From positions 1 to 38,112 of the IMG/VR virus record IMGVR_UViG_3300042363_000224: 38,112 nucleotides of DNA; one strand, 5' to 3'. The stretch comes from a virus. Its lineage: Duplodnaviria > Caudoviricetes. Of the stretch, positions 1 to 38,112 are shown in pieces. The stretch's first letter is position 1; every line of letters starts with the position of its first letter. The position numbers were made by a program, and so were the translations under genes. The notes under the pieces are model-generated. The model saw only the letters and a list, made by a program, of their open reading frames with translations. It was not told where the DNA came from and did no database searches.

Positions 1-77
1 AAAAAGAAGGATGTATAACTATATGTGTTACTATTTGTCCATGCTAATTATTGGAGGTTATAAATGAGAATAGATAG
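1..77. repeat. 77-bp terminal overlap, identical to 38036-38112 (circular contig)
   Basis: aaaaagaagg...agaatagatag occurs at both ends. The ORF ending at 38053 and the ORF starting at 64 join seamlessly. 77 is a common assembler k-mer length. Confidence 0.95.
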
Positions 78-900
78 AGTCAATCAGAAAATCTTTATTA
101 GACAATCATGGTTAGGTGACATGACTATCTGCCCTGAGCGTGCAAGGCTTGGTCAGATTCGCCCTGAGTTTCGGACAGGTTCCGATGCGACAATCATCGG
201 GACCGCATTGCATGCTGGCATTGAGTCGGTATTGGATGGCAGGTCATCCGAAGTTGCTGACATGTTGGAAGTTGTGAACAACGAATATGAAACGCTGGAA
301 ACAACAAATTATAAAAAGACCAACATTGACCCAGACAAAATTCCTAGTTATCTGGAGTCCATGTCACTTGCGTTTTATGATGGCATCCTGCCACATGTTG
401 AGCAAGGCGGAAAAGTAGAACACAAGTTCACATCCTCATTGGGTTTTACCATCAACGGCTACGCCGTTTATGTTGAAGGAACAATGGATTATGTTACACC
501 TAGTGGTGTTATTTGGGACTGGAAAACAGCCAGCCGCCAATACAACATCAAAGAGAAACAGAAATCCAACATCCAAGCCAGCGTTTATGCTGACGCTTGT
601 GTGTCATTAGGGTTATCACCTGAGTACCCAGTTGATTTCCGTTTCGGTGTTATGGTCCGTCAAGAGAAACCGAAATCACAAATCGTTTCCATCGTTCGTA
701 CCGAAGCGCATGGACAATGGTTGCGTCAATACATTCGTGGTGCAGTCAACACAGCAATGAACAACGGCTATGAAAACAACTGGATTATGAACGATTCTTC
801 AGCACTATGCTCGGAGTCGTGGTGCAGTTACTGGTCAATCTGTAAAGGTGCGTTTGTTCGTGCTGGAGATGACGCTTTCCCTGAGCAGTTGGATGTCTGA
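64..900 (+). CDS. PD-(D/E)XK exonuclease, Cas4/RecB(AddB)-like, probable Fe-S cluster
   Basis: N-terminal CPER, GTALH, GTMD...WDWKT, QASVY, C-terminal CSESWCSYWSIC (1+3 Cys); GGAGG SD upstream. Confidence 0.85.
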   Translation: MRIDRVNQKIFIRQSWLGDMTICPERARLGQIRPEFRTGSDATIIGTALHAGIESVLDGRSSEVADMLEVVNNEYETLETTNYKKTNIDPDKIPSYLESMSLAFYDGILPHVEQGGKVEHKFTSSLGFTINGYAVYVEGTMDYVTPSGVIWDWKTASRQYNIKEKQKSNIQASVYADACVSLGLSPEYPVDFRFGVMVRQEKPKSQIVSIVRTEAHGQWLRQYIRGAVNTAMNNGYENNWIMNDSSALCSESWCSYWSICKGAFVRAGDDAFPEQLDV

Positions 901-917
901 CATGTCCATGCTATGCT
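889..917 (+). promoter_or_regulatory. Putative sigma70/SigA-type promoter
   Basis: TTGGAT-N17-TATGCT with an extended -10 TG at 909-910. Confidence 0.45.
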
Positions 918-931
918 TTAGTCTAGTTCAC

Positions 932-973
932 GAACGACACGGCTCGGTCACCTCCAGTCAAGTCGTGTCGTTC
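932..973 (+). promoter_or_regulatory. 13-bp leader hairpin with anti-SD (CACCTCC) loop
   Basis: gaacgacacggct (932-944) pairs with agtcgtgtcgttc (961-973); loop is cggtcacctccagtca. Confidence 0.7.
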
Positions 974-1011
974 ACTAATGTAATACCAAACCAACAAGCA
1001 GGAGGCTTGAA

Positions 1012-1470
1012 ATGAATACCATCAGTAAAGACCAATCCATAATCACACAGGTGGCTGCAAAAATTGCTGCCGACCTGACACCTAAGACAGATGACATTAT
1101 GACGAACATCGCTAATTGGGCGATGGCGTTTGATGCCACTACTGATGCCCTGTTGCAAAAGCATGGCATGACCTCAGGTGGTATGACCGAACAAGAAGTA
1201 ACACAGGCTGTTATTTCAACCTTCGGTGCAACAGAAGCACCAGCACCACAGTGGGCTAAAGAAGCATCTGCACCAGCAGGTGGCTTTCAGGTCCGTATCA
1301 AAGGTCAGCAACACGGTCCAATTCCAGCATGGCTACATGCAGAATGTGCCAAGGTTGGCGTAAACGAAGTGTGGGACAACCGTGACGGTTTGCAAGCAAA
1401 CCCTAAGCGACCTTGGTTCAAAGCCGTAACAGGCGACAAGGCGTTTTGGGAACCACGAGCAAAACGATAA
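1012..1470 (+). CDS. Putative ssDNA-binding protein with C-terminal PDF-like motif
   Basis: C-terminal WDNR...NPKRPWFK...KAFW resembles the WDNR..NPK.PDFK motif of plant OSB proteins; lies between exonuclease and helicase; strong SD. Confidence 0.55.
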   Translation: MNTISKDQSIITQVAAKIAADLTPKTDDIMTNIANWAMAFDATTDALLQKHGMTSGGMTEQEVTQAVISTFGATEAPAPQWAKEASAPAGGFQVRIKGQQHGPIPAWLHAECAKVGVNEVWDNRDGLQANPKRPWFKAVTGDKAFWEPRAKR

Positions 1471-1476
1471 ACAAAC

Positions 1477-2559
1477 ATGACACCTGCTCCTGATTACACG
1501 GAGCGTTGGGCAAAGATTGGACGGGGCGAGAACATCGCCCCGTCCGATTTGTCTATAACGCCAAAATTCAATTACTTTACGCCACTTGAAAAAGCGGCTG
1601 ATGATTATGTCCATTGGGCGCAAACCCCACACGAACGAGTTTACACAGGCTTCGCTGACATTGATTCAGAGATGCGAGGGATAGCACCAGCAGAACTATG
1701 CCTAGTGAACGGCTACTCACATAGCGGTAAAACACTGGCATTGCTACAGATACTTGTAGCGAACAAAGACAAACGAGTTGTGTACTTCTGTCCCGATGAG
1801 CCACGCACACTAACACTCATAAAGTTAGCGTGTGTAGTCCATGGTGTTGATGCGAACCAGTTGGAACAACAAATCGCCAACAATGACCGTCAAGCCATAA
1901 ATCTGTTGAAAGACACAGCACGAGAACACTTCCCGAACCTAGCGGTATTTGACCAAACAGTTTCACTGTTGGACATGGAACGCTCGTTGTCAGAAGTATC
2001 GGATGCGATTGGTGACCCACAACTTATTGTTGTTGACTACTTGGAACTGTTGACAGGTGCTGGCGAGGATGTTCCATCCAAAGCCAACGCAATCAAAGCG
2101 TTCGGTAAACGCCACAACAAGCCTTTGCTTGTGTTGCACCAGTCATCACGGTCATCGGGTGCTGATGGAAAGAAAATGACTATCAGTTCAGGTGCATATG
2201 GTGGCGAACAGCAAGCGACACACATCATTGGTGTACGCCGTAAACGGTTTGAAATTGAAGGTTACATTCGTGACCTGCAAGGCAAACTGGAGCGTTCCGC
2301 AAACACCGAAAAGATTATGGAAAAGATTGAATCACTACAGTACGAGTTGCGTATCCACATGGATACCGTCACACTCAACTTGGTGAAGTGCAAGCGTCCT
2401 GCTTCGCAGTTGCTTGACGACATGGATTTCACAATTGAATACGGAACAGGTCGTTTGCATCGTCTTGACACAGGTGTGTTGCCATGGAAAGAAACACGCC
2501 CTAGCGTGGACAATCCACTAGAACAACTAACACTTGCAGAAACCTTGGAGGACTGGTGA
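1477..2559 (+). CDS. SF4 (DnaB-like) replicative helicase
   Basis: TGFADID, Walker A GYSHSGKT, Walker B IVVDYLE, LHQSSR, GEQQAT, VKCKR. Confidence 0.85.
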   Translation: MTPAPDYTERWAKIGRGENIAPSDLSITPKFNYFTPLEKAADDYVHWAQTPHERVYTGFADIDSEMRGIAPAELCLVNGYSHSGKTLALLQILVANKDKRVVYFCPDEPRTLTLIKLACVVHGVDANQLEQQIANNDRQAINLLKDTAREHFPNLAVFDQTVSLLDMERSLSEVSDAIGDPQLIVVDYLELLTGAGEDVPSKANAIKAFGKRHNKPLLVLHQSSRSSGADGKKMTISSGAYGGEQQATHIIGVRRKRFEIEGYIRDLQGKLERSANTEKIMEKIESLQYELRIHMDTVTLNLVKCKRPASQLLDDMDFTIEYGTGRLHRLDTGVLPWKETRPSVDNPLEQLTLAETLEDW

Positions 2560-3479
2560 TACCTGACTATCTGACACAGCCATACATAACTTTGTTTCGT
2601 GGCAGAGGTGATGTCTATGGACATAATGAGGGTCGCTGTGTAAAAGAGCAGTTGACAAACGATGTGTTCCAAAAACATTTCTCAGGCGAAGCACCAATCG
2701 GTATTTATCCGATGGTCCCACACTTTGAACAGTTTTATGTGGCATGGGGTTGCGTTGACTTTGATACAGCAGACGCAGACCAAAACGCAGTCAAACTACA
2801 TGACGCACTAATGGAAGCAGGCATCGTGTCATGGATAGAGAAATCACGGTCCAAAGGATTCCATGTTTGGGTATTCGCTGAACAGGCTGTCCTTGCTGAA
2901 GATATGCGTAACATGCTGGTCGTTGCATCACATGTTGCTGAAACACCAACCACAGAAGTAAACCCAAAACAAACCACATTGAAAGCAGGACAATATGGCA
3001 ACTATGTTAGGTTACCGTATCCGAATTTGGATGACCGACAAACTGACAAGCAACGCATCTTTCACAAGAAAGATGTTGAATCGGGTTCCTTTGACAATCC
3101 GATGGTCTTTAGTGACTTTATTGAATCGGCTATGTCGCTTCGCACCTCGCAAGAAACGATTAAGCGCATCTCATCCATGTATCAGCCACCCAAGCAAGCA
3201 ACGGTTGTCGTAAATGATTATGTTTATGATGCAACTCTCAGTGAGGCTATGCAGATACTTAGCCCGTTGGGTAAGGTCATTTGGCGTGACGGACCGCTAG
3301 CAGGCAAAGACCGTTCATCTACACTGGCGAAACTGGGTCACGAAACTGTTCGCAGTGGACTGAACCCTAGTCAGACTAAGATTGTGTTGATGACAGCAGA
3401 TAAACGGTGGGGCAAATATCATTTGCGCCACGATGGTGAACTAGAAATAGACAAACTAGTAGTGAGGGTCCATTCATAA
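2556..3479 (+). CDS. AEP-superfamily primase (TOTE-primase-like domain)
   Basis: FRGRGDVY, IGIYP, CVDFD (motif I), SRSKGFHVW (motif II), GNYVRLP (motif III); 4-nt overlap with helicase. Confidence 0.8.
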   Translation: MIPDYLTQPYITLFRGRGDVYGHNEGRCVKEQLTNDVFQKHFSGEAPIGIYPMVPHFEQFYVAWGCVDFDTADADQNAVKLHDALMEAGIVSWIEKSRSKGFHVWVFAEQAVLAEDMRNMLVVASHVAETPTTEVNPKQTTLKAGQYGNYVRLPYPNLDDRQTDKQRIFHKKDVESGSFDNPMVFSDFIESAMSLRTSQETIKRISSMYQPPKQATVVVNDYVYDATLSEAMQILSPLGKVIWRDGPLAGKDRSSTLAKLGHETVRSGLNPSQTKIVLMTADKRWGKYHLRHDGELEIDKLVVRVHS

Positions 3480-4063
3480 TGACAACAATCCTTGCAATTC
3501 AAGGTGACGACTACTGTGCAATCGGTTCCGATTCACAATGGTCAGACGACTATGGGCGAGTGGGACGCATGAACCAACCCAAAGTAGTTGTCGTAGGTAA
3601 ATACCTGATAGGCGTAGCAGGAGACACCCGTGGTGCGAATGTGATTCAACATGCCTTCAACCCACCAGTACTGCCACCCAAACTACTTGGCGCAAAACTA
3701 GTAAAGTTTATGGTGTCACATTTTGTCCCTGCTTTCAAAGAATGTTTAGAAGCGCATGGTGCAGGCAGACCACAATACGATGACCAGCCAGCAAAGTCAG
3801 CAAACGAGATACTCGTTTGCGCTAACGGCACAGTGTTTCAAATTGATGAGGATTATGGAACCGAAACCGACACATGCAACCTGTATGCGATAGGGTCAGG
3901 CGCACACTTTGGTTTAGGTGCATTGCAGGCTTACACAAATGGGAAGCGTGTCGTACAAACAAATGCTAAACAGTTGTTGCTCAAATCGTTAACAGTTTCT
4001 GCAAAGTTTGATAGCGGTTCAGGCGCACCATTCCACACCTTCATACAGACTGCGAAACCATAA
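3479..4063 (+). CDS. HslV/proteasome beta-subunit-like Ntn hydrolase
   Basis: N-terminal M-T-T-I, GSDSQ, conserved Lys (PKVV), GVAG, YAIGSG. Confidence 0.85.
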   Translation: MTTILAIQGDDYCAIGSDSQWSDDYGRVGRMNQPKVVVVGKYLIGVAGDTRGANVIQHAFNPPVLPPKLLGAKLVKFMVSHFVPAFKECLEAHGAGRPQYDDQPAKSANEILVCANGTVFQIDEDYGTETDTCNLYAIGSGAHFGLGALQAYTNGKRVVQTNAKQLLLKSLTVSAKFDSGSGAPFHTFIQTAKP

Positions 4064-4560
4064 TGGGAATAGAATACTCTAAGAAGCGTTATAAACAAGT
4101 ACAAAAAAAGAAAGCCGCCATCATACCAAAGGCTGGACCAATCAAAGTAACGAAGGCTGACGGAACTGTAGAAATACAACCAGTTGACCATAAGGCTGTA
4201 CGCAAAACCATTAAAAAAGGTGAAAACAAAGCGCACAAACTTAAAGTTGACTCCAAGCCAATTCCAAAAGGTCGTCCACGAATGACCCGTTATGGTCGTG
4301 TGTTCACTCCAGCAACCACATTGCAAGCAGAAGCAATCATAGCCCAAGCGTGGAACGGACCAAAATATGAAGGTTTAGTAGAGGTTGACTGTGTTTTTAC
4401 ACCCGAAGGAACAACAGTAATTGTTACACCAGTAGAAGGAACGCAATCAAAATTGCGTGGCGACATAGATAACTATGTCAAACTATTGATGGACGGTTTG
4501 AACGGTGTTGCATGGCTGGATGACAAACAAGTAATCGTAGTCAGAGCAGAAAAGCGATGA
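4063..4560 (+). CDS. rusA: RusA-family Holliday junction resolvase with basic N-terminal extension
   Basis: PIPKGRPR and GDIDNYVKLLMDGLNGVAWLDDKQV. Confidence 0.9.
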   Translation: MGIEYSKKRYKQVQKKKAAIIPKAGPIKVTKADGTVEIQPVDHKAVRKTIKKGENKAHKLKVDSKPIPKGRPRMTRYGRVFTPATTLQAEAIIAQAWNGPKYEGLVEVDCVFTPEGTTVIVTPVEGTQSKLRGDIDNYVKLLMDGLNGVAWLDDKQVIVVRAEKR

Positions 4561-5036
4561 GCAAAAACCAATCAGATTACGACATTCCAGCACGCAAGTT
4601 TGACTTTCATACCGACCTAAAATTTGGTCACAAAGGTGAAAAACTTGTAACAGATTTCCTTGATGCCATGTCTGATGGTTCCTTTGAAGTTAAAACAGAC
4701 CGATACCGCAACGGGCGAATGGTCCTAGAAATGACTCATAATCCACGCAAAAAACTGGATGATGAGGGTAAACCGTTATGGACCCCTTCAGGGCTTGCCA
4801 TAACAAAAGCAAAATGGTGGGTATATGTTTATACCTTGGATGGCTCCTTTGTGATAGTTAGCACGGACAGAATCAAACGATACCTAAAAGCCAACAAGGA
4901 GAGATTTAATCCCAAGAAATACCACTCTTTCGCATGGTCCTCCAGCAACCCGTCAAAAGGATATTTGCTGGAACCCGAAGATGTTATGGACATGATGATT
5001 AACACGGAATACGATGAAGTACGAACCAACAAGTAA
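4557..5036 (+). CDS. PD-(D/E)XK-like endonuclease
   Basis: GHKGE...FEVKTD...GRMVLE motif; ATGA overlap with rusA. Confidence 0.6.
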   Translation: MSKNQSDYDIPARKFDFHTDLKFGHKGEKLVTDFLDAMSDGSFEVKTDRYRNGRMVLEMTHNPRKKLDDEGKPLWTPSGLAITKAKWWVYVYTLDGSFVIVSTDRIKRYLKANKERFNPKKYHSFAWSSSNPSKGYLLEPEDVMDMMINTEYDEVRTNK

Positions 5037-5337
5037 AACGGGTAAAACCGAAATAGAATTATTGATGCAACCGTTTTCGGTTACACATGATGAAACCGAT
5101 TGGGAACTAATTGAACTGATACAAGACTCACTGTCCACGCTAAGCGAAGCAGACCAAGATGCATTGCATGGCATATACTATTTGCGACAAACATATCAGG
5201 ACCTTGCAAGCGACCTTGGCATCAAAGCCAAGTCGCATGCGTGGAGGAAAGTTGATTCAGCGTTAAAGAACTTACAGAAAGCATTATTGGAAAACGAAAA
5301 GTTCGTTGAAAAAATGGGAGAAAAATATGACATCTAA
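5014..5337 (+). CDS. Sigma-70 region 4-like HTH protein (no region 2)
   Basis: LSTLSEADQDALHGIYY..QTYQDLASDLGI....AWRKVDSALKNLQKAL fits the sigma4 pattern. Confidence 0.7.
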   Translation: MKYEPTSKTGKTEIELLMQPFSVTHDETDWELIELIQDSLSTLSEADQDALHGIYYLRQTYQDLASDLGIKAKSHAWRKVDSALKNLQKALLENEKFVEKMGEKYDI

Positions 5338-28874: not shown

Positions 28875-29186
28875 TTACCAAATTAAAGTATAAATTTCCT
28901 GTTCAACCGTATCATAACGGTCAAAAACCCGTAACTCCAACCATTCGTCACTATCCGTGACATCAAATGTCACAAAATCGTACACATCAACAAAATAGTT
29001 GTTTGTTAAATCTCCTAGAGTTGTTCCAGTTGTACCCTCCGAAACAAAAAACTCGGTTTGAAGGGTCCCCCGATACTGCAAACCTTTGTCAGACCAGAAA
29101 GCGTACAACAAGTCACCAAGGGTTTGCCCTGCTGACGGATACGACTTTGAAAGAGCCTCAAACATCGCATCATTAGTTGTTGTCAT
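28875..29186 (-). CDS. Hypothetical protein
   Basis: ORF with internally repeated TLGDL. Confidence 0.65.
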   Translation of the reverse strand: MTTTNDAMFEALSKSYPSAGQTLGDLLYAFWSDKGLQYRGTLQTEFFVSEGTTGTTLGDLTNNYFVDVYDFVTFDVTDSDEWLELRVFDRYDTVEQEIYTLIW

Positions 29187-29313
29187 AATCTCTCATCTTC
29201 CTAGGTTCACCCTCACAGCATGAATCCTTAAAGCCACACTCAGGGCAACGCCATCTGGTCGCAACAGGAGGATACTCACACCCACAAGTCGGACATTCTA
29301 TCGTTGAACCCAC
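29173..29313 (-). CDS. 46-aa Zn-finger micro-protein (not in ORF track)
   Basis: GTG start overlapping the terS stop; CPTCG...CPECGFKDSCC. Confidence 0.7.
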   Translation of the reverse strand: MGSTIECPTCGCEYPPVATRWRCPECGFKDSCCEGEPRKMRDYDNN

Positions 29314-29735
29314 TATTGTGCTTTTAGTTCCTTACGGGACTCAACCTCAGATTGAGCGACTGACGCTATAAGGCTGTCTAGTTCGGCATCTGTGATTTCT
29401 GATGGTTTGCTGGAGTGTTCTACATGGACTTGGGTTGGGGCTAGACGGTTGGTGGCTTGCAAATACAGTTTGGCGGAGTTGTTGTCGCCAGCCAAGGCAC
29501 GCTCATAAAGATTATCTAATAGTTTTTGGGTTCGTTCTGGGGATTGTTGGAGTTCGGATACTCGTTTTTCCCATTCCATTTTGAACGCTGGTTTCTTTTT
29601 CCATCTGCGTAAAGTCGTTTCATCTACACCTTCTAGGATGGCATATTTTTCTTGTGAGGATGGTACACGGTTTGGTGGTGGGACCATTAGCCAGTTCAAA
29701 AACTTTTCTTGCCTTGGGTCTAAGATGTTGTCCAT
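29313..29735 (-). CDS. Putative terminase small subunit (N-terminal HTH)
   Basis: QEKYAILEGVDETTLRRWKKKPAF HTH, A..GD..SAKLYL, C-terminal TDAELD; first late gene. Confidence 0.65.
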   Translation of the reverse strand: MDNILDPRQEKFLNWLMVPPPNRVPSSQEKYAILEGVDETTLRRWKKKPAFKMEWEKRVSELQQSPERTQKLLDNLYERALAGDNNSAKLYLQATNRLAPTQVHVEHSSKPSEITDAELDSLIASVAQSEVESRKELKAQ

Positions 29736-29755
29736 GCCATTAGGTGAAATGTTCC
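29735..29755 (-). promoter_or_regulatory. Late-gene GGAAC-N8-TA motif (representative copy; others at 13041, 15998, 17679, 20000, 22226, 25288, 28869)
   Basis: GGAAC atttcacc TAATGGC ATG; same spacing to the start codon at several late genes. Confidence 0.75.
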
Positions 29756-29935
29756 TAACTTGTATTGAACTTGTCTAGGGAACACAGGGAACAAGGGTGG
29801 GGGGAACCTACGGAGGGGGGTAGGATAAGTAGGTACACTGAGCCTACTGGCGAAGTGTACAATAGTGAAGGTAAGGATAAAACCATCTTACAGATGGTTT
29901 TGCTAATTGTTGTTTTAGCATGGACAAAAGGGCTT

Positions 29936-30085
29936 ATGGGAACATTACTTGTAATTGTAGGAACAGCGTTTGCTACCTTGTTTGGTATAGCATTGTTTTT
30001 GAGAGCATTTTTCAAAACTTTAGAAAGTTTTGATTACGATATTGAATACGAAATGGACAAATATTATGAAACCAAAAGACGCTAG
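29936..30085 (+). CDS. Possible small membrane protein
   Basis: MGTLLVIVGTAFATLFGIALFL...; ATG 29936 preferred over the TTG at 29765. Confidence 0.45.
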   Translation: MGTLLVIVGTAFATLFGIALFLRAFFKTLESFDYDIEYEMDKYYETKRR

Positions 30086-30341
30086 CCCACCAACAAAAGA
30101 CCCTGAGGTGATTCAGGGCGCACGCATGTATCTACGGGACAATGTTATGCCATCAATTCGCAAACAAAGTCTATCTAGGGAATATAAGAGTCCGAAACGG
30201 TTTGTTAAGGCTATGATGGACACAATCACCGAGGGTGATATATCACAAAAGTTTTCTGATGGTGACTGGCAGCCAGTAGCAGAAAACATGTTGATGCAAC
30301 TATGGCAGAACCAAAACAAGATGCGGGTAAAGCGACCATAA
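30066..30341 (+). CDS. Hypothetical protein
   Basis: ORF from MKPKD, packed tightly. Confidence 0.6.
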   Translation: MKPKDASPPTKDPEVIQGARMYLRDNVMPSIRKQSLSREYKSPKRFVKAMMDTITEGDISQKFSDGDWQPVAENMLMQLWQNQNKMRVKRP

Positions 30342-30342
30342 T

Positions 30343-30567
30343 ATGGCTGCTAAGAAAAGAAAACCAGCCATAGAGTTGCCAAACCCACCACAATCCTATT
30401 ATGATAACGCTATGCCACGCAAACGACAACTGCGTAACAAGGACGAAATCTATACTGGCAACAGCCGAGGCACAGTAGGAATATATCGCAAACCTAAGAA
30501 GAAAAAGATTATGTTTGCAAGACCTGAAGTGAAATTAAACCTAAATAAACGATTTATGGAAGCATAA
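30343..30567 (+). CDS. Small basic protein
   Basis: Starts MAAKKRKPAIE. Confidence 0.7.
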   Translation: MAAKKRKPAIELPNPPQSYYDNAMPRKRQLRNKDEIYTGNSRGTVGIYRKPKKKKIMFARPEVKLNLNKRFMEA

Positions 30568-30851
30568 TGGCTGCTAAAAAGAAACGCCGACAACCAATAG
30601 TTCCAGATACCCTTGAAAGCAAAAAACAAAAAAAGTTTGAAAAGGCTGTATGGCTACCAAAAGGTGTAGATAAAACGGTTTACCGTAAAGACCTAGCACC
30701 ATTAAAACCAGAAAAACTAAAACCATTCAAATCAGAATACAACAAATATCGCCCAATGAACCCATGGGACCCAAATTTGCCACCAGAAGTAAAAAGAATG
30801 TACACCACTAAAGCAAAAAAGAAAAACAAACGCAAAGGTATGACCGCATAA
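30567..30851 (+). CDS. Small basic protein
   Basis: Starts MAAKKKRRQP; TAATG coupling. Confidence 0.7.
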   Translation: MAAKKKRRQPIVPDTLESKKQKKFEKAVWLPKGVDKTVYRKDLAPLKPEKLKPFKSEYNKYRPMNPWDPNLPPEVKRMYTTKAKKKNKRKGMTA

Positions 30852-31174
30852 TGGCAACCTCAAAACCATCACGGGACCCACGACTAGCAAGAGCAGGTGT
30901 ATCAGGCTACAACCAGCCAAAACGCACACCAAACCACCCAACCAAATCCCACATTGTCGTAGCAAAATCAGGCGGACAAATCAAAACCCTAAGATTCGGG
31001 CAACAAGGTGTTAAAACCAACCTAACAGCAGGACAGAACAAGGCGTTCAAATCCCGTCACGCACCCAATATCGCTAAAGGACCTATGTCACCAGCATGGT
31101 GGGCAGACAAAGTGAAATGGGACAAATCAAAAACAGCCCAACCAAAAAACCAGAAATGGGTCAAAGGCTCATAA
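30851..31174 (+). CDS. Conserved basic phage protein of unknown function
   Basis: PKRTP.HPTKSH...RFGQQG...FKSRH...WWADKVKW pattern, recalled as common in aquatic phages. Confidence 0.75.
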   Translation: MATSKPSRDPRLARAGVSGYNQPKRTPNHPTKSHIVVAKSGGQIKTLRFGQQGVKTNLTAGQNKAFKSRHAPNIAKGPMSPAWWADKVKWDKSKTAQPKNQKWVKGS

Positions 31175-31175
31175 A

Positions 31176-31577
31176 ATGGGATACACCAAACCACAACTAA
31201 GAGCAAGAATAGTTGCAGCCGTCAAGGCTGGAACCGCAGGAGGAAACGCAGGACAATGGTCCGCACGCAAAGCCCAAATCGTAGCACAACGCTATGAGAA
31301 GGCTGGCGGAGGTTACACAGGAACCAAAACCAAAGCCCAATCCAACCTGAGTAAATGGACAAAAGAAAAATGGACAACCAAATCAGGTAAACCATCCACC
31401 CAAGGACCCAACGCCACAGGCGAAAGATACCTACCAAAAGACGCAATCAACAGACTATCAACATCAGAATACGCTGCCACCACAAAAAAGAAGCGTGAAG
31501 GCATCAAATCAGGAAAACAGTTCGTACCAAACACTAAAGCAGCACGGACAGCAGGACGAGCAGCCCGAAAATCATAA
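31176..31577 (+). CDS. Conserved basic protein (DUF5872-like)
   Basis: GQWSARKAQ....YEKAGGGY, L.KWTKEKW, ERYLPK. Confidence 0.7.
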   Translation: MGYTKPQLRARIVAAVKAGTAGGNAGQWSARKAQIVAQRYEKAGGGYTGTKTKAQSNLSKWTKEKWTTKSGKPSTQGPNATGERYLPKDAINRLSTSEYAATTKKKREGIKSGKQFVPNTKAARTAGRAARKS

Positions 31578-31933
31578 CACAATATATTTTTTTGTGTACC
31601 ACCCCCATATAAAAATTTCACAATTCGGCTCTACCTCCTTCAATAAATAAATACATATAGGGGCGTACCCCCCCATGCTCCCCTATGCGGTGTGCGGTGT
31701 GGCTAGGCGAGGTTTGGATTATGGTTTCGGCTTTATGATTCGGCATAATGTGCCACCAAATTTCCACGATGTGCTAAACGCATGCGTGTGACGGGGGTGC
31801 ATGAGCCGAGGCTCCAACCAATGCATAATCTTTTGGGGTCGTATTCGGGATTTTGTTCATCGCCTGCTTTGCGGGAATATTCCTGCGCATTATGCATAGG
31901 ATATATCTTGGGAAAAGTCACACGATGAAAAGG

Positions 31934-31965
31934 TTGACATTTGTTTTTGGCTGTGTCATTAATGT
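31934..31965 (+). promoter_or_regulatory. Putative early promoter
   Basis: Perfect TTGACA; the -10 region (TGTCATTAAT) is imperfect. Confidence 0.45.
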
Positions 31966-31969
31966 TTGG

Positions 31970-32456
31970 CATCGGAATCGGCAACGGTAATCCGACAGGG
32001 CATGGAATCCTGTTGGGTAGGGTCACCACAACCGAACGAAGTGCTGAGCAATACGAATCGGCACACCACACAGCGACACCTCATGGCGAATGTCATGGGT
32101 TATGGATGGCTGTTGGAGTCGCAGGGCAACCTATTCTTCCACAATGAAATGTGGAACGGCGTAAAGCGACACGAACAATGTTTGCATTGTTCAACTTAGT
32201 TGATGCATGGACAATCTGTAGATTGTGTTTGGTGTTGACCCCATTAGATAGCCGAAGGCTTAGTTGGCTTCGGTGAAGTGACGGGGAACGGGACATAATC
32301 GGAATTACATGCAAAGACATGAAATGTCCCCATGATTGATTGCAATGTTCATGGGGTCACGGGAGGTTTGCAGGCTGTGAAAATCCTTGCGGTGATGGAC
32401 GCATTATGCTAGAGTCACTACGAGGATTAGCGAGGTTCAATTCCTTGCCTTTCCGC
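31970..32456 (+). ncRNA. Candidate large structured ncRNA with 3' tRNA-like domain
   Basis: No credible ORF; more than 10 nested helices with G-U pairs; terminal T-arm GCGAGG-TTCAATT-CCTTGC. Confidence 0.6.
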
Positions 32457-32511
32457 TATGTCCTAAGGGACATAATCATAATCACCTATTACAACTGGAG
32501 GTTGTAACATT

Positions 32512-32832
32512 ATGAAACTAGAAGCAATGTCAGTGAATGTGACACCATTCAAGAATGGTGTCCGAAAGAATGTTGGCAATTGGTCGTTCGTGGACAACAA
32601 TGACGGTAACTTTAATTACCGTCAAATTTTGCATCATGGAACTCTCTTGGGAGAGTTTTACTGTGACTGTGATGATGTGAGTTGGGGCTTTGCCCCGTTG
32701 TCCACTGGTTGGGGTTCTGCATCGGACCAAATGGGTATGAATAAAATCCTGAAGGATTTCGGTTGGACATTCCGTAGGAATGGTGGCGAGGCTCGTTTTG
32801 AGCATGTTTCGGGACGCAAGTTCCCTAACTGA
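32512..32832 (+). CDS. Hypothetical early protein
   Basis: ORF with GGAGGT SD. Confidence 0.8.
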   Translation: MKLEAMSVNVTPFKNGVRKNVGNWSFVDNNDGNFNYRQILHHGTLLGEFYCDCDDVSWGFAPLSTGWGSASDQMGMNKILKDFGWTFRRNGGEARFEHVSGRKFPN

Positions 32833-32981
32833 CTTTGGTCAGTGGGACGAAATAGCACACCGATTTGGTGTGGGCAGTGCAATTCTGCTATCGTCCACTA
32901 TGGTGGACTCAGCCAATGGGGTTGAGTCATTAGATGTCCGTGAACGGACAGCCATTCAATACATAATGGGAGGATAACATT

Positions 32982-34265
32982 ATGGCAACATCAGCAAACA
33001 CAGTTGTATCTATTGATACAAACAACAGGAGAATCACTTTCCGTACCGATACAGGTCGGGAATATAAGACTCACATCAGCATGCTAAGCAAAAACGAACT
33101 CATCAAGGTTGGCTCGTTCCTTCAAGTCAAGTGGAACGGCACACCAATGCACAAGACAGTCGCTGAGATTGCTGGCATCGTAGATGAGGCTTTGGCACAG
33201 TTCAAAAGTGTTCCACAACCTACGGTTGAGAAGCCAATCGTTCGTACTTCGGAACCTGTCCCTGCTAAAGCAGTTCCAGTAAACGAAAGTTTGTCGCTAG
33301 ATGCGATGATGAAAATTGTGGTTGCAAACATTATGTCAACAATGCCAGTAGGGATTGACGAGAACGCTGTTCGTAACATCGTTTCCGATGTTGTTGACCC
33401 GATTGCGATGGACCATGCAGTAGCGTTGGACAGATTGTCCAGCAAAATTGATGCGATGCAACCGAAGGTTACACAAATCGTCATCAAGGACCGTCCGACA
33501 GTTACCCTAAAGGGTGTACAGCACAAGGCTTTTGCTGACATTATGATGTCAATATCTGCCCGTTGCAACACTTTCCTTGTGGGTCCTGCTGGCACTGGTA
33601 AGACAACAATGGTGCAACAAGTTGCTGATGCTTTGGGTTTGCGTTTTCATGCTGAAAACTTGACAGCCGCAACTACCGAGTATTCCCTAAAGGGCTTTAC
33701 TGATGCCAATAGCGGTTACAAAGCAACTCCACTTCGTGAATTGTTTGCGAATGGTGGCGTTTACTTGTTGGATGAGATTGACAATGCGAACCCCAATGTT
33801 TTGGGTGTTCTCAACAGTGCGTTGTCCAATGGCTTTATGGCTTTCCCTGATGGTATGGTGCAAAAGCATCCCGAGTTCATCGCTGTTGCGGCAGGTAATA
33901 CTTACGGCAACGGTGCAACGGCAGAGTATGTAGGACGGAATCCGATTGACGGTGCAACTTTGGACCGCTTCGCCTTTTTCAATGTTGACATTGATGAAGC
34001 GGTAGAGGATGCAATGCTTGCAGGGTTCGGTTTGCCTACGGCAACTGCTACTGCTTGGGTCAATGCGGTTCGCAAATCCCGTCAGAATGTCGCTGATAGC
34101 GGTTTACGAGTCATCGTGTCACCACGAGCCACAGCGAACGGTGCAGGGTTACTTGCTCAGGGCATGGACATGGACAAGGTGTACAGTGCCACAGTCCTGA
34201 AGGGTGCAAAGCATGACCAAGTTGAGAAAATTCGTCAAGGTGTAACCTTGACAGTAGCCGCTTAG
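32982..34265 (+). CDS. MoxR/CbbQ/CobS-like AAA+ ATPase
   Basis: GPAGTGKT, LLDEIDNA, AAGNT.G.G, DGATLDRF, SPRA. Confidence 0.9.
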   Translation: MATSANTVVSIDTNNRRITFRTDTGREYKTHISMLSKNELIKVGSFLQVKWNGTPMHKTVAEIAGIVDEALAQFKSVPQPTVEKPIVRTSEPVPAKAVPVNESLSLDAMMKIVVANIMSTMPVGIDENAVRNIVSDVVDPIAMDHAVALDRLSSKIDAMQPKVTQIVIKDRPTVTLKGVQHKAFADIMMSISARCNTFLVGPAGTGKTTMVQQVADALGLRFHAENLTAATTEYSLKGFTDANSGYKATPLRELFANGGVYLLDEIDNANPNVLGVLNSALSNGFMAFPDGMVQKHPEFIAVAAGNTYGNGATAEYVGRNPIDGATLDRFAFFNVDIDEAVEDAMLAGFGLPTATATAWVNAVRKSRQNVADSGLRVIVSPRATANGAGLLAQGMDMDKVYSATVLKGAKHDQVEKIRQGVTLTVAA

Positions 34266-34293
34266 TCCATTACGATTCAACTGGAGGTTGAAT

Positions 34294-35136
34294 ATGTCAA
34301 ATACAAAACTTATGCAACTTGACGGCAAAGCCGTTTATGTTGATTATTTCAACTCGTTTGGCGAGATGCTCAACTATGTTGAACGCAACCCAAAGTTTGC
34401 ACAATCCGACAAGGATGGCACACAGGGTTGGGATGGGATGCGGAACTTTGCTGATGCATCACAATTAGCCCGTGATGGTTGGCATGATGTTCGTCCTGAG
34501 GTTGATAAGTTGCTCAACCAAATGTCGGATGTCATTGCTGAGCGTTTGGAAATTGCTCCTGCGATGACATGGAATGTCGCTGGTGGTGTTGTGGATGTTG
34601 GTCGTTACTGTGGTAACGAACCGATGTGCATGATTGATTTTCCGATGGAACCACAGGAACGAATGGGCAAGGTGGTCAAAATGTTTATTGACTACGGTGC
34701 ATCGGCTTCGTTCAGTGGCGATTTCATTATGAAACGGGGCATCGTGTTGTTGGCTCTTGTGGATACTTTGCAGAAACTTGGTGTTTCTGTTGAGATTTAC
34801 GGCGAGACAGCAATCTCTAGTGGCGGTACGATGCATACCACGGTAACGAAGTTGCATGACCCAACAGACAAGTTGGACATTGACGAACTGATGTTCACTT
34901 TGGCTCATCCTGCGATGCTTCGCCGTATGGCGTTCGCTGTTCGGGAGATGTCATCCTGTGCCAAATCAATCAGTGCTGTTCAAGGCGGTTCGTATGGTTC
35001 AACACGACACACGATGTATGCCCCGACTGTCAATGCTGATGTTCGGATGGAACGCTTGGAACATGCGGCAACACAGTGCATGGAGAATCCTGTGGAATGG
35101 GTTATGCAAACCATAACTGGTTTGAATCTAGTGTAG
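34294..35136 (+). CDS. vWA-like partner of the AAA ATPase
   Basis: Degenerate MIDAS-like FIDYGASAS, HPAMLRR; directly downstream of the AAA gene. Confidence 0.6.
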   Translation: MSNTKLMQLDGKAVYVDYFNSFGEMLNYVERNPKFAQSDKDGTQGWDGMRNFADASQLARDGWHDVRPEVDKLLNQMSDVIAERLEIAPAMTWNVAGGVVDVGRYCGNEPMCMIDFPMEPQERMGKVVKMFIDYGASASFSGDFIMKRGIVLLALVDTLQKLGVSVEIYGETAISSGGTMHTTVTKLHDPTDKLDIDELMFTLAHPAMLRRMAFAVREMSSCAKSISAVQGGSYGSTRHTMYAPTVNADVRMERLEHAATQCMENPVEWVMQTITGLNLV

Positions 35137-35145
35137 ATGTCCATT

Positions 35146-35190
35146 GGTGTAACAGGGTGGTGATTTTATCCTCCGCTACCTTGTTACACC
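35146..35190 (+). promoter_or_regulatory. 15-bp leader hairpin with TCCTCC in the loop
   Basis: ggtgtaacagggtgg pairs with ctaccttgttacacc. Confidence 0.65.
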
Positions 35191-35233
35191 TTTGGTGTAA
35201 AATATAAACAACAACACAACCTTGGAGGTTGAA

Positions 35234-35689
35234 ATGAAAAAGCAATTAGCACGGACATTGTTCATGTGGGTCTTGTATGGGGTCACATTGTGGGTTGGTT
35301 TCGGGTGGTTCGGTTTACCGAACGCTTTTATGCCAATGTTTATGACCTTTTTGGGTACTTCAGTACCTTTAGGGTTCGCTTTATGGGAGTCATTCATCTT
35401 TATGGGGATGAATGACCTAAGAAAAGATGCACGAGATGCAGAGTTGGAAACTTGGGCGAGAGATTTTTTCTCACCTTTGAAAGAGGACCAGTCATGGGAT
35501 GTCAGCATTCCTGCGCCGAATGGTTACCAGTTTGAAATTTGGTGGAATGGTGCGTTAGTGATGTGGCAAGCGGAACTGTGGGACATGACGGTTATGCCAA
35601 CAGCGATATGTGACCGTGATGTGTTTGTCACTAGGGACGAAGCGATTGATTGGTTCGTGAAAACTAGCAAGATGATTGACAAGTTCTAA
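35234..35689 (+). CDS. Membrane protein (2 N-terminal TM helices)
   Basis: GGAGGT SD before ATG 35234; hydrophobic N-terminal half. Confidence 0.75.
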   Translation: MKKQLARTLFMWVLYGVTLWVGFGWFGLPNAFMPMFMTFLGTSVPLGFALWESFIFMGMNDLRKDARDAELETWARDFFSPLKEDQSWDVSIPAPNGYQFEIWWNGALVMWQAELWDMTVMPTAICDRDVFVTRDEAIDWFVKTSKMIDKF

Positions 35690-35704
35690 GGCAATGTGTA
35701 AAAT
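35676..35704 (+). promoter_or_regulatory. Strong sigma70/SigA-type promoter
   Basis: TTGACA-N17-TAAAAT. Confidence 0.8.
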
Positions 35705-35733
35705 AACTAGCGTAAACCGATTGGAGGTGAGTG

Positions 35734-35892
35734 ATGCTTACGAACTACAAAGAGTGGACAACGGATGAACTGTTGAAGCAGTTGCAAAGCAACCGTGTTG
35801 TTGTGTTCAACAGGAACAATGACAACACAGTAATTGTGGAAATTCTAGAAACTAGAATGAAAGAAATGAAGGAGGTCATGTACAACGACTAA
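35734..35892 (+). CDS. 52-aa hypothetical protein (not in ORF track)
   Basis: GGAGGTGA SD; MLTNYKEWTTDELL...VMYND. Confidence 0.7.
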   Translation: MLTNYKEWTTDELLKQLQSNRVVVFNRNNDNTVIVEILETRMKEMKEVMYND

Positions 35893-35904
35893 TAGATACA
35901 ACAC

Positions 35905-35973
35905 AACTGGTAAGGATGAAATGTCCCCTTCGGGGGACATACACGAATAGTTTTTCGTGCTGATGATTCCAGT
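35905..35973 (+). ncRNA. Type II hammerhead ribozyme
   Basis: GAAA (35918-21), 8-bp stem III with UUCG loop, UA, 6-bp stem I, CUGAUGA (35960-66), short stem II; intergenic. Confidence 0.8.
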
Positions 35974-35999
35974 CCGAATCTGTACCTTGGAGGTATGTT

Positions 36000-36605
36000 A
36001 TGAGTAAGCAAGTGGCAGGGGCATTTATGCCCAGTGGTATAGGCAAAGAAATTGAGCCTGTAATGGTTGGCGATTACAAACACATTCAGTCGCTAATTGG
36101 CGGTTGTTTTGATGTTGTCACAACTAGGGTTGGTGGTAACGAAATCGTTGGTTATGTCCATGATGAGGGTTTGCTGATTGGTTTGGAACAAAACTGGTTT
36201 GCCAGTGCATTGTTTGAACGCAACCTAGTGGGTCCTTGCGTTATCATTGGTGGTGAGTCACCTGACGGATATTGTGATGGTGACAGTTATGATTTGCCTG
36301 AAAATTTCTTTTATTTCCTTGCAACGAAGTTCACGGAACATGTTGCTGACACATACAACGAGGCTACGACAGCAACGATTGTGTTGGAACTTGCCCAAAA
36401 GTTTGGTCTTGCAACCGAGGATGAACTCAATTTGCTTGTTAGCAAAATGGGTGACGAGATGAACACAGGTCAAAAGGGTGATGCCATGGAAATGCTGATT
36501 TCATTGACTAATCGGGTCAACGACCAGTTGGCTGATATGGCTAGCAAAGTAAAAGGCACGCAGTTGGTCAATGAAGTTGAGGAATTTTTGAAAGGAAATT
36601 CATAA
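36000..36605 (+). CDS. DUF3846-like domain protein
   Basis: IQSLIGG.FD...YVHDEGLL.GL..N..AS....LVGPCVIIG. Confidence 0.7.
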   Translation: MSKQVAGAFMPSGIGKEIEPVMVGDYKHIQSLIGGCFDVVTTRVGGNEIVGYVHDEGLLIGLEQNWFASALFERNLVGPCVIIGGESPDGYCDGDSYDLPENFFYFLATKFTEHVADTYNEATTATIVLELAQKFGLATEDELNLLVSKMGDEMNTGQKGDAMEMLISLTNRVNDQLADMASKVKGTQLVNEVEEFLKGNS

Positions 36606-36760
36606 TGTCAGATAGTCCAGTTGAACAGTTGGTGGGTCAGGGCAAGTATGAGTGTCCGACCTGTGAGAACACTATTGAGGTGTTCGTTCGCCTTAGCGAA
36701 CTTCCGTTATGTTGTAATCATGCAACAGGTAAAATTCAAATGCGAAAGGTAGGTAAGTAA
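36605..36760 (+). CDS. 51-aa Zn-ribbon protein (not in ORF track)
   Basis: YECPTC...PLCCNH; TAATG coupling. Confidence 0.7.
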   Translation: MSDSPVEQLVGQGKYECPTCENTIEVFVRLSELPLCCNHATGKIQMRKVGK

Positions 36761-36761
36761 C

Positions 36762-36947
36762 ATGTCATGTCCAATTTGTAATGGTCCGATTCCTAATGCG
36801 ATGGATGAAGGAAAATATTCGGGTGCGTTATCTCGGAGAGATAACAAGACTGAGATTTGCTCATCGTGTGGTGTTATGGAAGCGATTGAGGATTATAACC
36901 GTAGGTCGGTTATTGTTGAACGACCAACATTGACGGAGGGGATGTGA
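36762..36947 (+). CDS. Zn-finger protein
   Basis: CPIC...ALSRRDNKTEICSSCG. Confidence 0.75.
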   Translation: MSCPICNGPIPNAMDEGKYSGALSRRDNKTEICSSCGVMEAIEDYNRRSVIVERPTLTEGM

Positions 36948-37186
36948 TGCGTAAATTCAAGGCACGACATTATCCTGCGATGGAATTGTTGCGAATGTTT
37001 CGCCCTGAAACGGATGACACAATTATTGCGGAAACATTGGGGGTTCATCCTCAAATTGTTAGGAAATGGAAATATAAAAACACACAAATAAACCAGTGGT
37101 TTGCTGACAAGTATGCGATTCGTTTGGGTATGCATCCTTCGGCAGTATGGAATGATTGGTTTGAGATGGAGGCAGAACAAGTATGA
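36947..37186 (+). CDS. HTH DNA-binding protein
   Basis: IAETLGVHPQIVRKW...ADKYAIRLGMHPSAVW. Confidence 0.7.
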   Translation: MRKFKARHYPAMELLRMFRPETDDTIIAETLGVHPQIVRKWKYKNTQINQWFADKYAIRLGMHPSAVWNDWFEMEAEQV

Positions 37187-37353
37187 AATCACATGACGAA
37201 ATTTTTGATGTTGAGCAGAACATGAAACAAGTTTTCGGAGATGACCTCGCATTGGGGTTGTGTCTGAAATTGATTTATGATTTGACAACTGACGAGCAGT
37301 GGCAAAATCTAGTAGAAACAACGCTACAAGCAAGGCGGTTAGCAAGTGTGTGA
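37183..37353 (+). CDS. 56-aa hypothetical protein (not in ORF track)
   Basis: ATGA overlap, GGAGG SD; MKSHDEIF...RRLASV. Confidence 0.7.
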   Translation: MKSHDEIFDVEQNMKQVFGDDLALGLCLKLIYDLTTDEQWQNLVETTLQARRLASV

Positions 37354-38053
37354 TGACCATGGTTTGGATGATGTTACACCTATCGGTGTGAACATATCCT
37401 CCGATGCCATAAATGGTATGTGGATGGGTGACCGTATTGCATACATAAAAGGTTATGACCTGACGAACAGGCGTGACATTTTGGAATGGTTGGAAGCAGT
37501 AACACAAGTGCATGACCAGTTTGTTTCCGAGTTCATGGGTGATTCGTTTGATGAGTTGCAACTGTTGGAATTACCAACGAACCCGTTGCAACGCTGGATG
37601 ATTATTCGTGACTCGGTAGCAAAAATCATAAACCAATTTCAAAATGTTACCAGTGTTCTTCAAGTGATTGACCAGTTGGGTGTGTCCCTAGATGAGTACA
37701 TGACAGCGTTCAGCACGAACAAGTTTGGTGGTTATATTGACCGAGCAACCTTTGCGGAATTTGAATCCGACATGCTGAAGGAACGCCCAAATTACATGAA
37801 ATTAGTGCGTAAATACGGGCTAAATCGCAACATGGTGAAAAGTTTCCAAGAACTGTACGAACCAATAGTGGTTCGCACTTATGGTCGTGGAAACAACATG
37901 GGACTAGTTAGAAAAGAGTTCCATGAAATGATTATGGCGGGGACAATATCAAACAAAGAAATAGTCAGAATAATAAATGAGAAATACGGGACCAATTATG
38001 TTCCTGACACAGTTCGCTGGCATAAGCGACAAATAAAAAAGAAGGATGTATAA
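37346..38053 (+). CDS. Hypothetical protein with probable C-terminal HTH
   Basis: SNKEIVRIINEKYG......TVRWHK. Confidence 0.65.
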   Translation: MCDDHGLDDVTPIGVNISSDAINGMWMGDRIAYIKGYDLTNRRDILEWLEAVTQVHDQFVSEFMGDSFDELQLLELPTNPLQRWMIIRDSVAKIINQFQNVTSVLQVIDQLGVSLDEYMTAFSTNKFGGYIDRATFAEFESDMLKERPNYMKLVRKYGLNRNMVKSFQELYEPIVVRTYGRGNNMGLVRKEFHEMIMAGTISNKEIVRIINEKYGTNYVPDTVRWHKRQIKKKDV

Positions 38054-38112
38054 CTATATGTGTTACTATTTGTCCATGCTAATTATTGGAGGTTATAAAT
38101 GAGAATAGATAG

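Follow-up and report, generated by a model that had tools for sequence, protein, structure and literature searches.

Positions 31,970 to 32,456 of the window (the whole 38,112-nt stretch of DNA analyzed here, a complete 38.1-kb phage record with terminal repeats) hold two conserved folded RNAs in series on the + strand, RNA A of ~390 nt and element B of 95 nt, and both folds are kept by compensatory change. The preliminary description of this region had seen a single multi-domain non-coding RNA of ~490 nt. A conserved multi-domain + strand RNA is indeed present, but it is made of two elements, the last ~95 nt being a self-contained tRNA mimic; the T-arm, the tRNA-like 3' domain and the two-element make-up are absent from that description. 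The reading that we favor, at a probability of roughly 0.45 for the whole chain, is that tRNA mimics release RNA A from the early transcript and that RNA A then acts in trans as a decoy of a host factor. The features used below are the following.

31934..31963, + strand: host-type promoter with -35 TTGACA (31934-31939), 18-nt spacer and a -10 slot, ATTAAT, that is off-consensus here
31968..32360, + strand: RNA A, ~390-nt multi-domain structured RNA (z -4.41, covariation, no Rfam family), with predicted ends
31978..32039, + strand: RNA A domain 1, with P1b (31978-80/32037-39), P2 (31985-88/32031-34) and a variable insert with a hairpin (31990-32018)
32041..32064, + strand: RNA A hairpin P3 with a conserved GAG...GAAUC loop (covariation model; kept in the divergent L021 and L035)
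32066..32116, + strand: RNA A P4, long interrupted hairpin, 10/16 pairs with double changes
32118..32170, + strand: RNA A P5, with the near-invariant purine-rich internal loop AGGGYAR / YGUAAA (covariation model)
32173..32192, + strand: RNA A hairpin P6, 6/8 pairs with double changes
32205..32312, + strand: RNA A central domain, with P8 (32205-09/32308-12), P9 (32221-30/32291-32300), hairpin P7 (32211-16/32221-26) and a variable extension
32325..32359, + strand: RNA A terminal hairpin P10 (covariation model), ending 2 nt before the predicted cut
32361..32458, + strand: element B, anticodon-less tRNA mimic (covariation; z -3.3; same fold in L025, L026 and L035)
32361-66/32449-54, + strand: acceptor of B, plus the pair 32360-32455
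32367-81, + strand: D-like arm of B, GG loop
32382-32428, + strand: long arm of B with a GGAC/UAGA loop and no anticodon
32430-48, + strand: T-arm of B, followed by G73 at 32455 and the tail CUA
32457..32474, + strand: hairpin from tRNA position 75, ahead of the ribosome-binding site of the first gene (32494-32501); present, with differing sequences, in 23/23 B elements
32512..32832, + strand: first gene of the early run, encoding 106 aa without a PHROG or Pfam assignment
32828..32843, + strand: hairpin ending 2 nt before element C
32845..32900, + strand: element C, 53-nt tRNA mimic (32845-32897) followed by CUA (z -4.1 with flanks)
32982..34265, + strand: MoxR-like AAA ATPase, the DUF7192 gene (34288-35136) coming next
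35914..35970, + strand: type II hammerhead-like fold, off-consensus in that stem II has a U.U at its base, read by eye, ahead of the DUF3846 gene (36000)

Conservation and fold of RNA A

Homologues were gathered through two downstream proteins (6 and 46 loci) and through DNA patterns; labels of the type L0xx to L2xx designate fetched loci of related or pattern-matching genomes. Some of the patterns require the 3' end and are blind to forms without it, forms that the ATPase-anchored set can show. RNA A was found in 22 of the 44 ATPase-anchored loci with upstream sequence, and it persists in phages with 44-49% ATPase identity to the query. The alignment set comprised 29 distinct full-length sequences, 410-522 nt long and on average 67% identical (minimum 52%), worth about 15 effective sequences as estimated on the 27 best aligned. 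A model (R1) without the acceptor stem, built from ragged input, served as a rough finder only.

The RNA is real, conserved and intricately folded. The + strand of the region folds with z = -4.47, better than 100 of 100 shuffles, against z = -3.02 for the - strand, which bears out the + strand RNA-level structure expected beforehand; RNA A alone reaches -4.41. A 110-pair model laid on a sequence-only alignment had 87.7% of its cells paired compared with 34-44% in slid controls, and scored 0.40 for covariation, where slid partners scored 0.085-0.113. Both sides change in 65 of the 110 modelled pairs over the 29 sequences (shuffled mean 47, none of 500 shuffles as high); as the structure was derived from the same 29 sequences and the pair shuffle ignores kinship, these figures are strong support and not a p-value. 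Four short mechanical ORFs overlap the region, but indels between conserved anchors occur in all three frames of the homologues and the RNA is therefore non-coding, in agreement with the preliminary description.

RNA A has no fixed neighboring gene and is independent of the 106-aa gene, which is missing between the RNA and the ATPase in L011, L018 and L030. Blastn against 50,697 cultured phage records returned chance matches only, and RNA A is absent from the cultured ATPase relatives Silverleaf, Lolly9 and Kudefre. A search of the phage's own genome for antisense targets of the RNA gave nothing above chance, and no long stretch of it recurs elsewhere in the genome. L217 was discarded as a homologue, its resemblance being a chance 19-mer match. 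The sole match of a GTDB pattern scan aimed at element B only, L246 (Cystobacter), was likewise rejected as a T-arm look-alike without RNA A; at 4940-5049 this Cystobacter fuscus locus holds an isolated T-arm and acceptor-like end, then a hairpin, with no tRNA or tmRNA call.

The domains of RNA A lie in series, which replaces the long-range topology drawn previously, and sub-domains are shuffled between strains. All the helix strings that had been listed, and TTGACA upstream, are present in the window. The helices gtgctga/tcggcac, ctcatggc/gtcatggg, ttccac/gtggaa, gaacaatg/cattgttc, acaatc/gattgt and ccccatg/catgggg change on both sides among the 29 sequences. Others did not survive the comparison: the long-range gtcac/gtgac and accgaa/ttcggt pairings are complete (5/5 and 6/6) in 4/29 and 11/29 sequences, gggacat/atgtccc is down to two or fewer pairs in 10/29, and the upstream gcgac makes 5/5 pairs with gtcgc in 10/29, as against 26/29 for the downstream GCGAC (32166-32170). 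The helix atccgacaggg/tcctgttgggt is fully paired in the window (11/11) but lies in the variable insert, and the agg-GCAA-cct hairpin is intact in 24/29 although GG at 32158-32159 is the more likely partner of its CC. A scan of the alignment found no convincing covarying pseudoknot or long-range helix beyond P8/P9.

P1b is paired in 100% of cells, P2 has two double-change pairs, and P9 shows double changes in 7/10 pairs. P7 has 6/6 pairs in 25/29 sequences, with C-G/U-A/A-U exchange. The strand GAUUGU (32221-32226) has two alternative partners, 32211-32216 on its 5' side (P7) and 32295-32300 on its 3' side (P9); the two pairings are mutually exclusive and both covary, suggesting that the strand takes part in a switch, a folding intermediate or an intermolecular swap. 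In 788 kb of fetched loci the AGGGYAR / YGUAAA motif of P5 is confined to RNA A homologues, and the invariant unpaired purine loops of RNA A suggest a binding surface. A resemblance of P5 to the c-di-GMP-I riboswitch (RF01051) was not borne out by the model, which gave four weak matches, none of them on the RNA. Conserved parts of RNA A contain AAUCGG at three places (31976-31981, 32056-32061 and 32297-32302), possibly as repeated binding sites.

tRNA mimics and hammerheads between early genes

Element B is a local cloverleaf (32361-32455) with a 12-bp acceptor/T stack (6+6 bp). Its acceptor keeps 5-6 of 6 pairs and its T-stem 6/6 in all 29 sequences, and acceptor positions 4-6 switch together (A-U/U-A/C-G, G.U/A-U/U-A, G-C/A-U). 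G73 and the pairs G1-C72/G2-C71 are invariant in 29/29, and pair 3-70 is U.U in 10/29 and G3.U70 in 16/29. No tRNA (RF00005) cloverleaf with a 7-nt anticodon loop was found, nor any ARAGORN or Rfam call, and the tip loop of B is variable. The UCC-G-CUA end is common to B and to genuine phage tRNA-Ser genes (50/99 distinct pattern matches), and because the same end pattern retrieves mostly such genes, B is probably modelled on tRNA-Ser. The 3' strand of the closing helix proposed in the preliminary description pairs locally with 32360-32366, with both-side changes at three positions. The closing helix can still form, its outer part keeping 4-5 of 5 pairs in 29/29 and the 5' end being complementary to the 3' strand of B over 8-10 of 10 pairs in 28/29, but the outer part is without both-side change. 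A closed form of A and B is thus compatible with the 5'-3' complementarity, and the single-sequence minimum-energy fold is without the local B acceptor. A tmRNA-like domain closed by the two ends was dropped in view of the local acceptor with its double changes.

Element C consists of a 6-bp acceptor, an AAUAG linker, one hairpin, a T-arm with G55, A73 and CUA, and its acceptor covaries in L002, L007, L010, L027 and L146. An A18-G55 contact is equivalent to the G18-U55 contact of the tRNA elbow. T-loops with U55 or C55 go with the GG loop in 29/29 B elements and those with G55 go with an AG linker in 12/12 small elements of 52-53 nt, while the small element of L146 combines U55 with GG; such a correlation would be expected of an elbow contact. 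No paper on the A18-G55/G18-U55 equivalence came up in our literature search.

The mimics fall in two size classes, 44-53 nt and ~95 nt, and the small ones carry A73 or G73. Hairpins abut them, one ending ~2 nt before G1 and the other starting near position 75. Downstream hairpins accompany 40/54 mimics compared with 9/48 genuine tRNA genes, and upstream hairpins 47/54 compared with 11/48, in a count that retains about ten rows with a wrong 5' strand and a few doubtful elements and in which homologues are not independent. Both hairpins are present in 23/23 B elements; C fails the downstream test.

MALAT1/mascRNA processing uses an anticodon-less tRNA-like fold as an RNase P/RNase Z signal at a transcript boundary. 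Plant mitochondrial t-elements are likewise tRNA-like and are proposed RNase P/Z signals (PMC1920247). As in these systems, the mimics of the window have a 12-bp acceptor/T stack with a T-loop and a D-loop partner, and they stand at transcript-unit boundaries, B lying between RNA A and gene 32512 and C between that gene and the ATPase. B and C would resemble t-elements and mascRNA in that a tRNA-like fold makes an upstream 3' end and a downstream 5' end. Unlike them, the window's mimics belong to a bacteriophage, come in two size classes, have abutting hairpins on both sides and are interchangeable with hammerheads.

This exchange is seen in the slot before the ATPase, which holds a mimic in 17 of 44 loci, a hammerhead in 7, both in none and neither in 20; the minus strand of 46 loci has 0 mimics and 0 hammerheads. 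On the ATPase tree, the distribution of the mimic and hammerhead states requires at least two changes from one to the other. In L021/L022, sister to the B-bearing L025 and L035, a hammerhead ends RNA A in place of B. A type II hammerhead descriptor (CUGANGA, GAAA, NUH, three stems) matched in 15/46 ATPase loci, all on the sense strand; the Rfam model RF02276 gave one match to the relatives' hammerheads (28.7 bits against a cut-off of 37, 5 records), and across 16 loci nothing reached gathering level. Most simply read, mimics and hammerheads are alternative cut signals; the U.U at 3-70, the CUA tail, the C-1/G73 pair described below, the persistent 5'-3' complementarity and the failure of Rfam to recognize most of the hammerheads speak against this. 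In prophages, hammerheads located beside genes cut polycistronic RNA both in vitro and in vivo (PMC3088659). The clustered type II hammerheads of prophages (RF02276) are gene-boundary cutters, and relatives of our phage carry hammerheads in mimic slots; in contrast to them, the window's mimics would need host enzymes, and its one hammerhead-like fold is off-consensus. That fold (35914-35970) occupies the slot of the relatives' consensus hammerheads, matches neither Rfam nor the descriptor, and may be attenuated or dead.

A distinctly unlikely alternative is that A and B stay joined as a large RNA with a tRNA-Ser-like domain at its end, CCA-tailed and perhaps charged, or that B alone is the product; it would mimic tRNA towards synthetases, ribosomes or tRNA-cleaving defense nucleases. 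Genuine tRNA-Ser has a long variable arm next to the T-arm, and the long arm of B lies beside its T-arm in the same way. The end that B has in common with tRNA-Ser genes, the invariance of G73 and of the first two acceptor pairs, the retained 5'-3' complementarity and the GGAC/UAGA loop of the long arm, invariant beyond the need of a bare cut signal, fit a joined product, as does a C at -1 that pairs with G73 in 28/29 B elements (C at -1 in only 3/34 control tRNA-Ser genes) and could block the 5' cut. Against it, L021/L022 keep RNA A with a hammerhead for B, L026 keeps B without the GGAC/UAGA loop, the small mimics vary between A73 and G73, and P10 stops 2 nt short of G1, the very spacing seen between C and the hairpin ahead of it. 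Many phage tRNA-Ser genes (L088-L205) themselves end in G73-CUA and not in CCA.

Early transcription and the proposed role of RNA A

The phage encodes replication genes on the + strand (64-5337), virion and packaging genes on the - strand (5849-29735), then small + strand genes up to 31577. The RNAs open an early-type run that continues 3' with the 106-aa orphan, the MoxR-like ATPase and the DUF7192 gene. The nearest cultured ATPases, from Mycobacterium and Gordonia phages (34-38%), hint weakly at an actinobacterial host; the capsid protein had no informative neighbor for host assignment. The stretch 31577-31930 is non-coding and conserved in kin; it contains an inverted repeat of G/C runs (31657-31676) and recurrent ATTATG/CATAAT words, and contigs of several relatives start near it, a weak hint of a physical genome end. 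A long imperfect hairpin resembling an RNase III site lies at 35146-35193 (+) between the DUF7192 gene and gene 35222.

Transcription from the host-type promoter would reach RNA A first and then a ~12-kb run of genes on the + strand. The TTG-17/18-xANNNT arrangement of this promoter precedes RNA A in relatives as well as unrelated leaders of relatives; the site at 31934..31963 is missing from the list of a consensus scanner. Transcription would start near 31968-31969. Three sequencing runs contained 5-6% of the words, as contigs; one 258-nt contig, from RNA run X2, covers 31997-32226 with 16 differences and is no demonstration of a transcript.

The proposed chain starts from the folds of RNA A and B held by compensatory change. 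Host RNA polymerase very probably starts near 31968 and reads into the early operon. It is also likely, judging from their architecture and from the equivalent hammerheads of relatives, that B and C display a tRNA elbow and a 12-bp acceptor/T stack and are cut as signals. The enzymes would be host RNase P and probably also a 3'-trailer nuclease, the mimics punctuating the early transcript. A cut at or next to 32361 would leave RNA A ending on P10, a ~390-nt RNA with a 5' triphosphate and a hairpin at its other end, presumably stable as a free molecule, and removal of B would leave the first mRNA starting on its own hairpin. C74 disfavors some RNase Z enzymes. The C-1/G73 pair and the CUA (not CCA) tail could slow or shift RNase P cleavage of B. 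The 12-bp stack is the ruler of RNase P, and a 3' RCCA anchors its substrate (PMC11143913).

Once free, RNA A may use its invariant loops to capture a host factor in trans early in infection, as a decoy or sponge; to this step we give a little less than even odds. Candidate targets would be a defense protein, a nuclease or RNA polymerase, perhaps with P7/P9 toggling. The argument is one of position and conservation: an exchangeable, first-expressed module resembles host-interaction genes, and together with the invariant purine loops this suggests a trans-acting decoy. RNA-based phage counter-defense has precedent (10.64898/2026.06.01.729453), as have abundant long phage RNAs of unassigned role (PMC9241854).

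More distant phages carry, in the same slot and behind the same type of promoter, unrelated but strongly folded leaders of 380-700 nt (L023/24, L039/40, L041/42 and L146; z -3.6 to -11), most of which end in a T-arm; they had no Rfam match at gathering level. A bolder proposal, which we regard as unlikely, is that the first transcribed slot holds exchangeable RNA effectors, unrelated families of 350-550 nt excised by mimics or hammerheads for RNA-only counter-defense or host takeover, RNA A being a switchable decoy of an immunity factor or signal. The leader finder reported a leader in 22/46 loci, with wrong bounds in L012, L023, L026 and L030/31. Other large leader RNAs, with approximate bounds, are L023 2945-3473, L024 3105-3659, L041 1625-2010, L048 3140-3562, L043 3225-3560, L146 645-1225 and L036 3040-3570; they are outside Rfam and, where tested with blastn, unrelated to RNA A, giving at least four further candidate families.

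RNA A could instead be a cis-acting element that works on the polymerase transcribing it, either an antiterminator like put or a Rho-proof leader of the early operon, with the mimics only separating it from the mRNAs. HK022 put RNA is a precedent for a cis antiterminator RNA, and the place of RNA A at the head of a ~12-kb run is where such an element would be expected. A terminator scan of 29000-38112, however, gave 15 sites over the two strands (8.8 expected), most of them inside genes, and no convincing intrinsic terminator on the + strand; further promoter-like sites lie at 34248 and 35676, 390 nt is far above what put needs, and a cut directly behind RNA A would untether it. We consider this cis role decidedly unlikely.

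A GOLLD/ROOL-like RNA-only oligomer, in which the P7/P9 strand serves intermolecular pairing, is improbable, although it would be compatible with the decoy. GOLLD and ROOL form cages (PMC12286853). Like RNA A, GOLLD (RF02032) and ROOL (RF03087) are large covarying phage RNAs of unclear role, with tRNA-type elements (PMC12286853, PMC5737381), and the size, the phage origin, the purine-rich invariant loops, the covariation of both P7 and P9 and a tRNA-Asn gene upstream in several relatives agree with such a structure. But RNA A is smaller (~390 nt), matches neither model, has its domains in series without a covarying pseudoknot or a conserved self-complementary loop that we could see, and stands at a fixed early-operon head, outside any tRNA island. 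Upstream of their leader RNA, L025, L030, L035, L036, L038, L041, L042 and L048 each have one tRNA gene (Asn in those examined with ARAGORN), which the window lacks.

A packaging or replication RNA tied to a genome end (pRNA- or primer-like) would suit the late/early boundary and the contigs of L010 and L011, which start 170-370 nt upstream, but is very improbable given the terminase pair and portal of usual type that the phage encodes, the unrelated RNAs in the slot of kin with related ATPases and the lack of a long genome match. A degenerate tmRNA is largely refuted: A+B resembles tmRNA (RF00023) in having an anticodon-less tRNA top-half mimic at the 3' end of a ~400-500-nt RNA, with a T-arm and G3.U70 in 16/29, but there is no model or ARAGORN match, the acceptor of B is local, position 73 is G in 29/29 and not A, and there is no tag frame or conserved frame of any kind.

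Relation to known RNAs

Neither RNA A nor the mimics belong to a catalogued family. A full Rfam scan (E<=10) of the RNA matched no family, group I and group II intron cores included, and ARAGORN made no call. The GOLLD model had 0 matches at E<=10 and none in the homologues at E<=0.5; ROOL was absent from the full scan and found in 0/5 records at E<=10, the latter a weak result alone as the control was nowhere positive. The raiA motif (RF03072) and RNase P RNA type A (RF00010) were each found in 0/5 records, the RNase P control passing the cut-off in 8/14 genomes, and mascRNA-menRNA (RF01684) reached 16.2 bits against a cut-off of 42.5. The RNA thus stands outside GOLLD, ROOL, RNase P and the group I/II introns, as the preliminary description had judged. 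Its suggestion of a new class holds at family level, the searches having turned up no homologue beyond this group of phages. C4 antisense RNA of phages P1/P7 is an RNase P substrate (PMC11143913) and as such a phage RNA matured by the host enzyme, like that proposed here, but our RNA has no Rfam match and no antisense target.

Processing at tRNA mimics (organelles, MALAT1), punctuation by hammerheads (prophages) and large orphan phage RNAs (GOLLD, ROOL) are already known; new are the RNA A family and a variant of the processing signal. The combination of a large RNA, mimics and hammerhead swap had no match in a literature search from which most subscription journals were outside, and which returned no paper on RNA A or on mimic-hammerhead swaps in phages. 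An IMG/VR screen (Fremin et al. 2023, PMC10690425) gave no match in part of its supplements; fragments may be listed in the rest. RNA A joins the few large phage RNAs of unassigned function with a structure backed by covariation, predicted ends and a candidate two-state switch, and a synthetic RNA A would be a starting point for folding, binding and structure work. The replacement of tRNA mimics by self-cleaving ribozymes, and the reverse, at orthologous gene boundaries offers a natural experiment for bacterial t-element processing.

Gordonia phage Kudefre has a perfect 7+5-bp anticodon-less tRNA mimic with the tail A-CUC between its genes 139 and 138 (L252 4177-4231; record NC_060136, ~72462-72567), also found in Syleon, Sephiroth and, in part, Octobien14; located between two genes of a cultured phage, it makes the cutting claim testable in a laboratory host. 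L114 has two minimal tRNA mimics of 44-48 nt between genes (878-943 and 1581-1650), each with a strong hairpin after it, and L093 two tRNA-like genes with anticodon-arm inserts (1103-1222 and 1709-1823), the insert of the first being ~60 nt.
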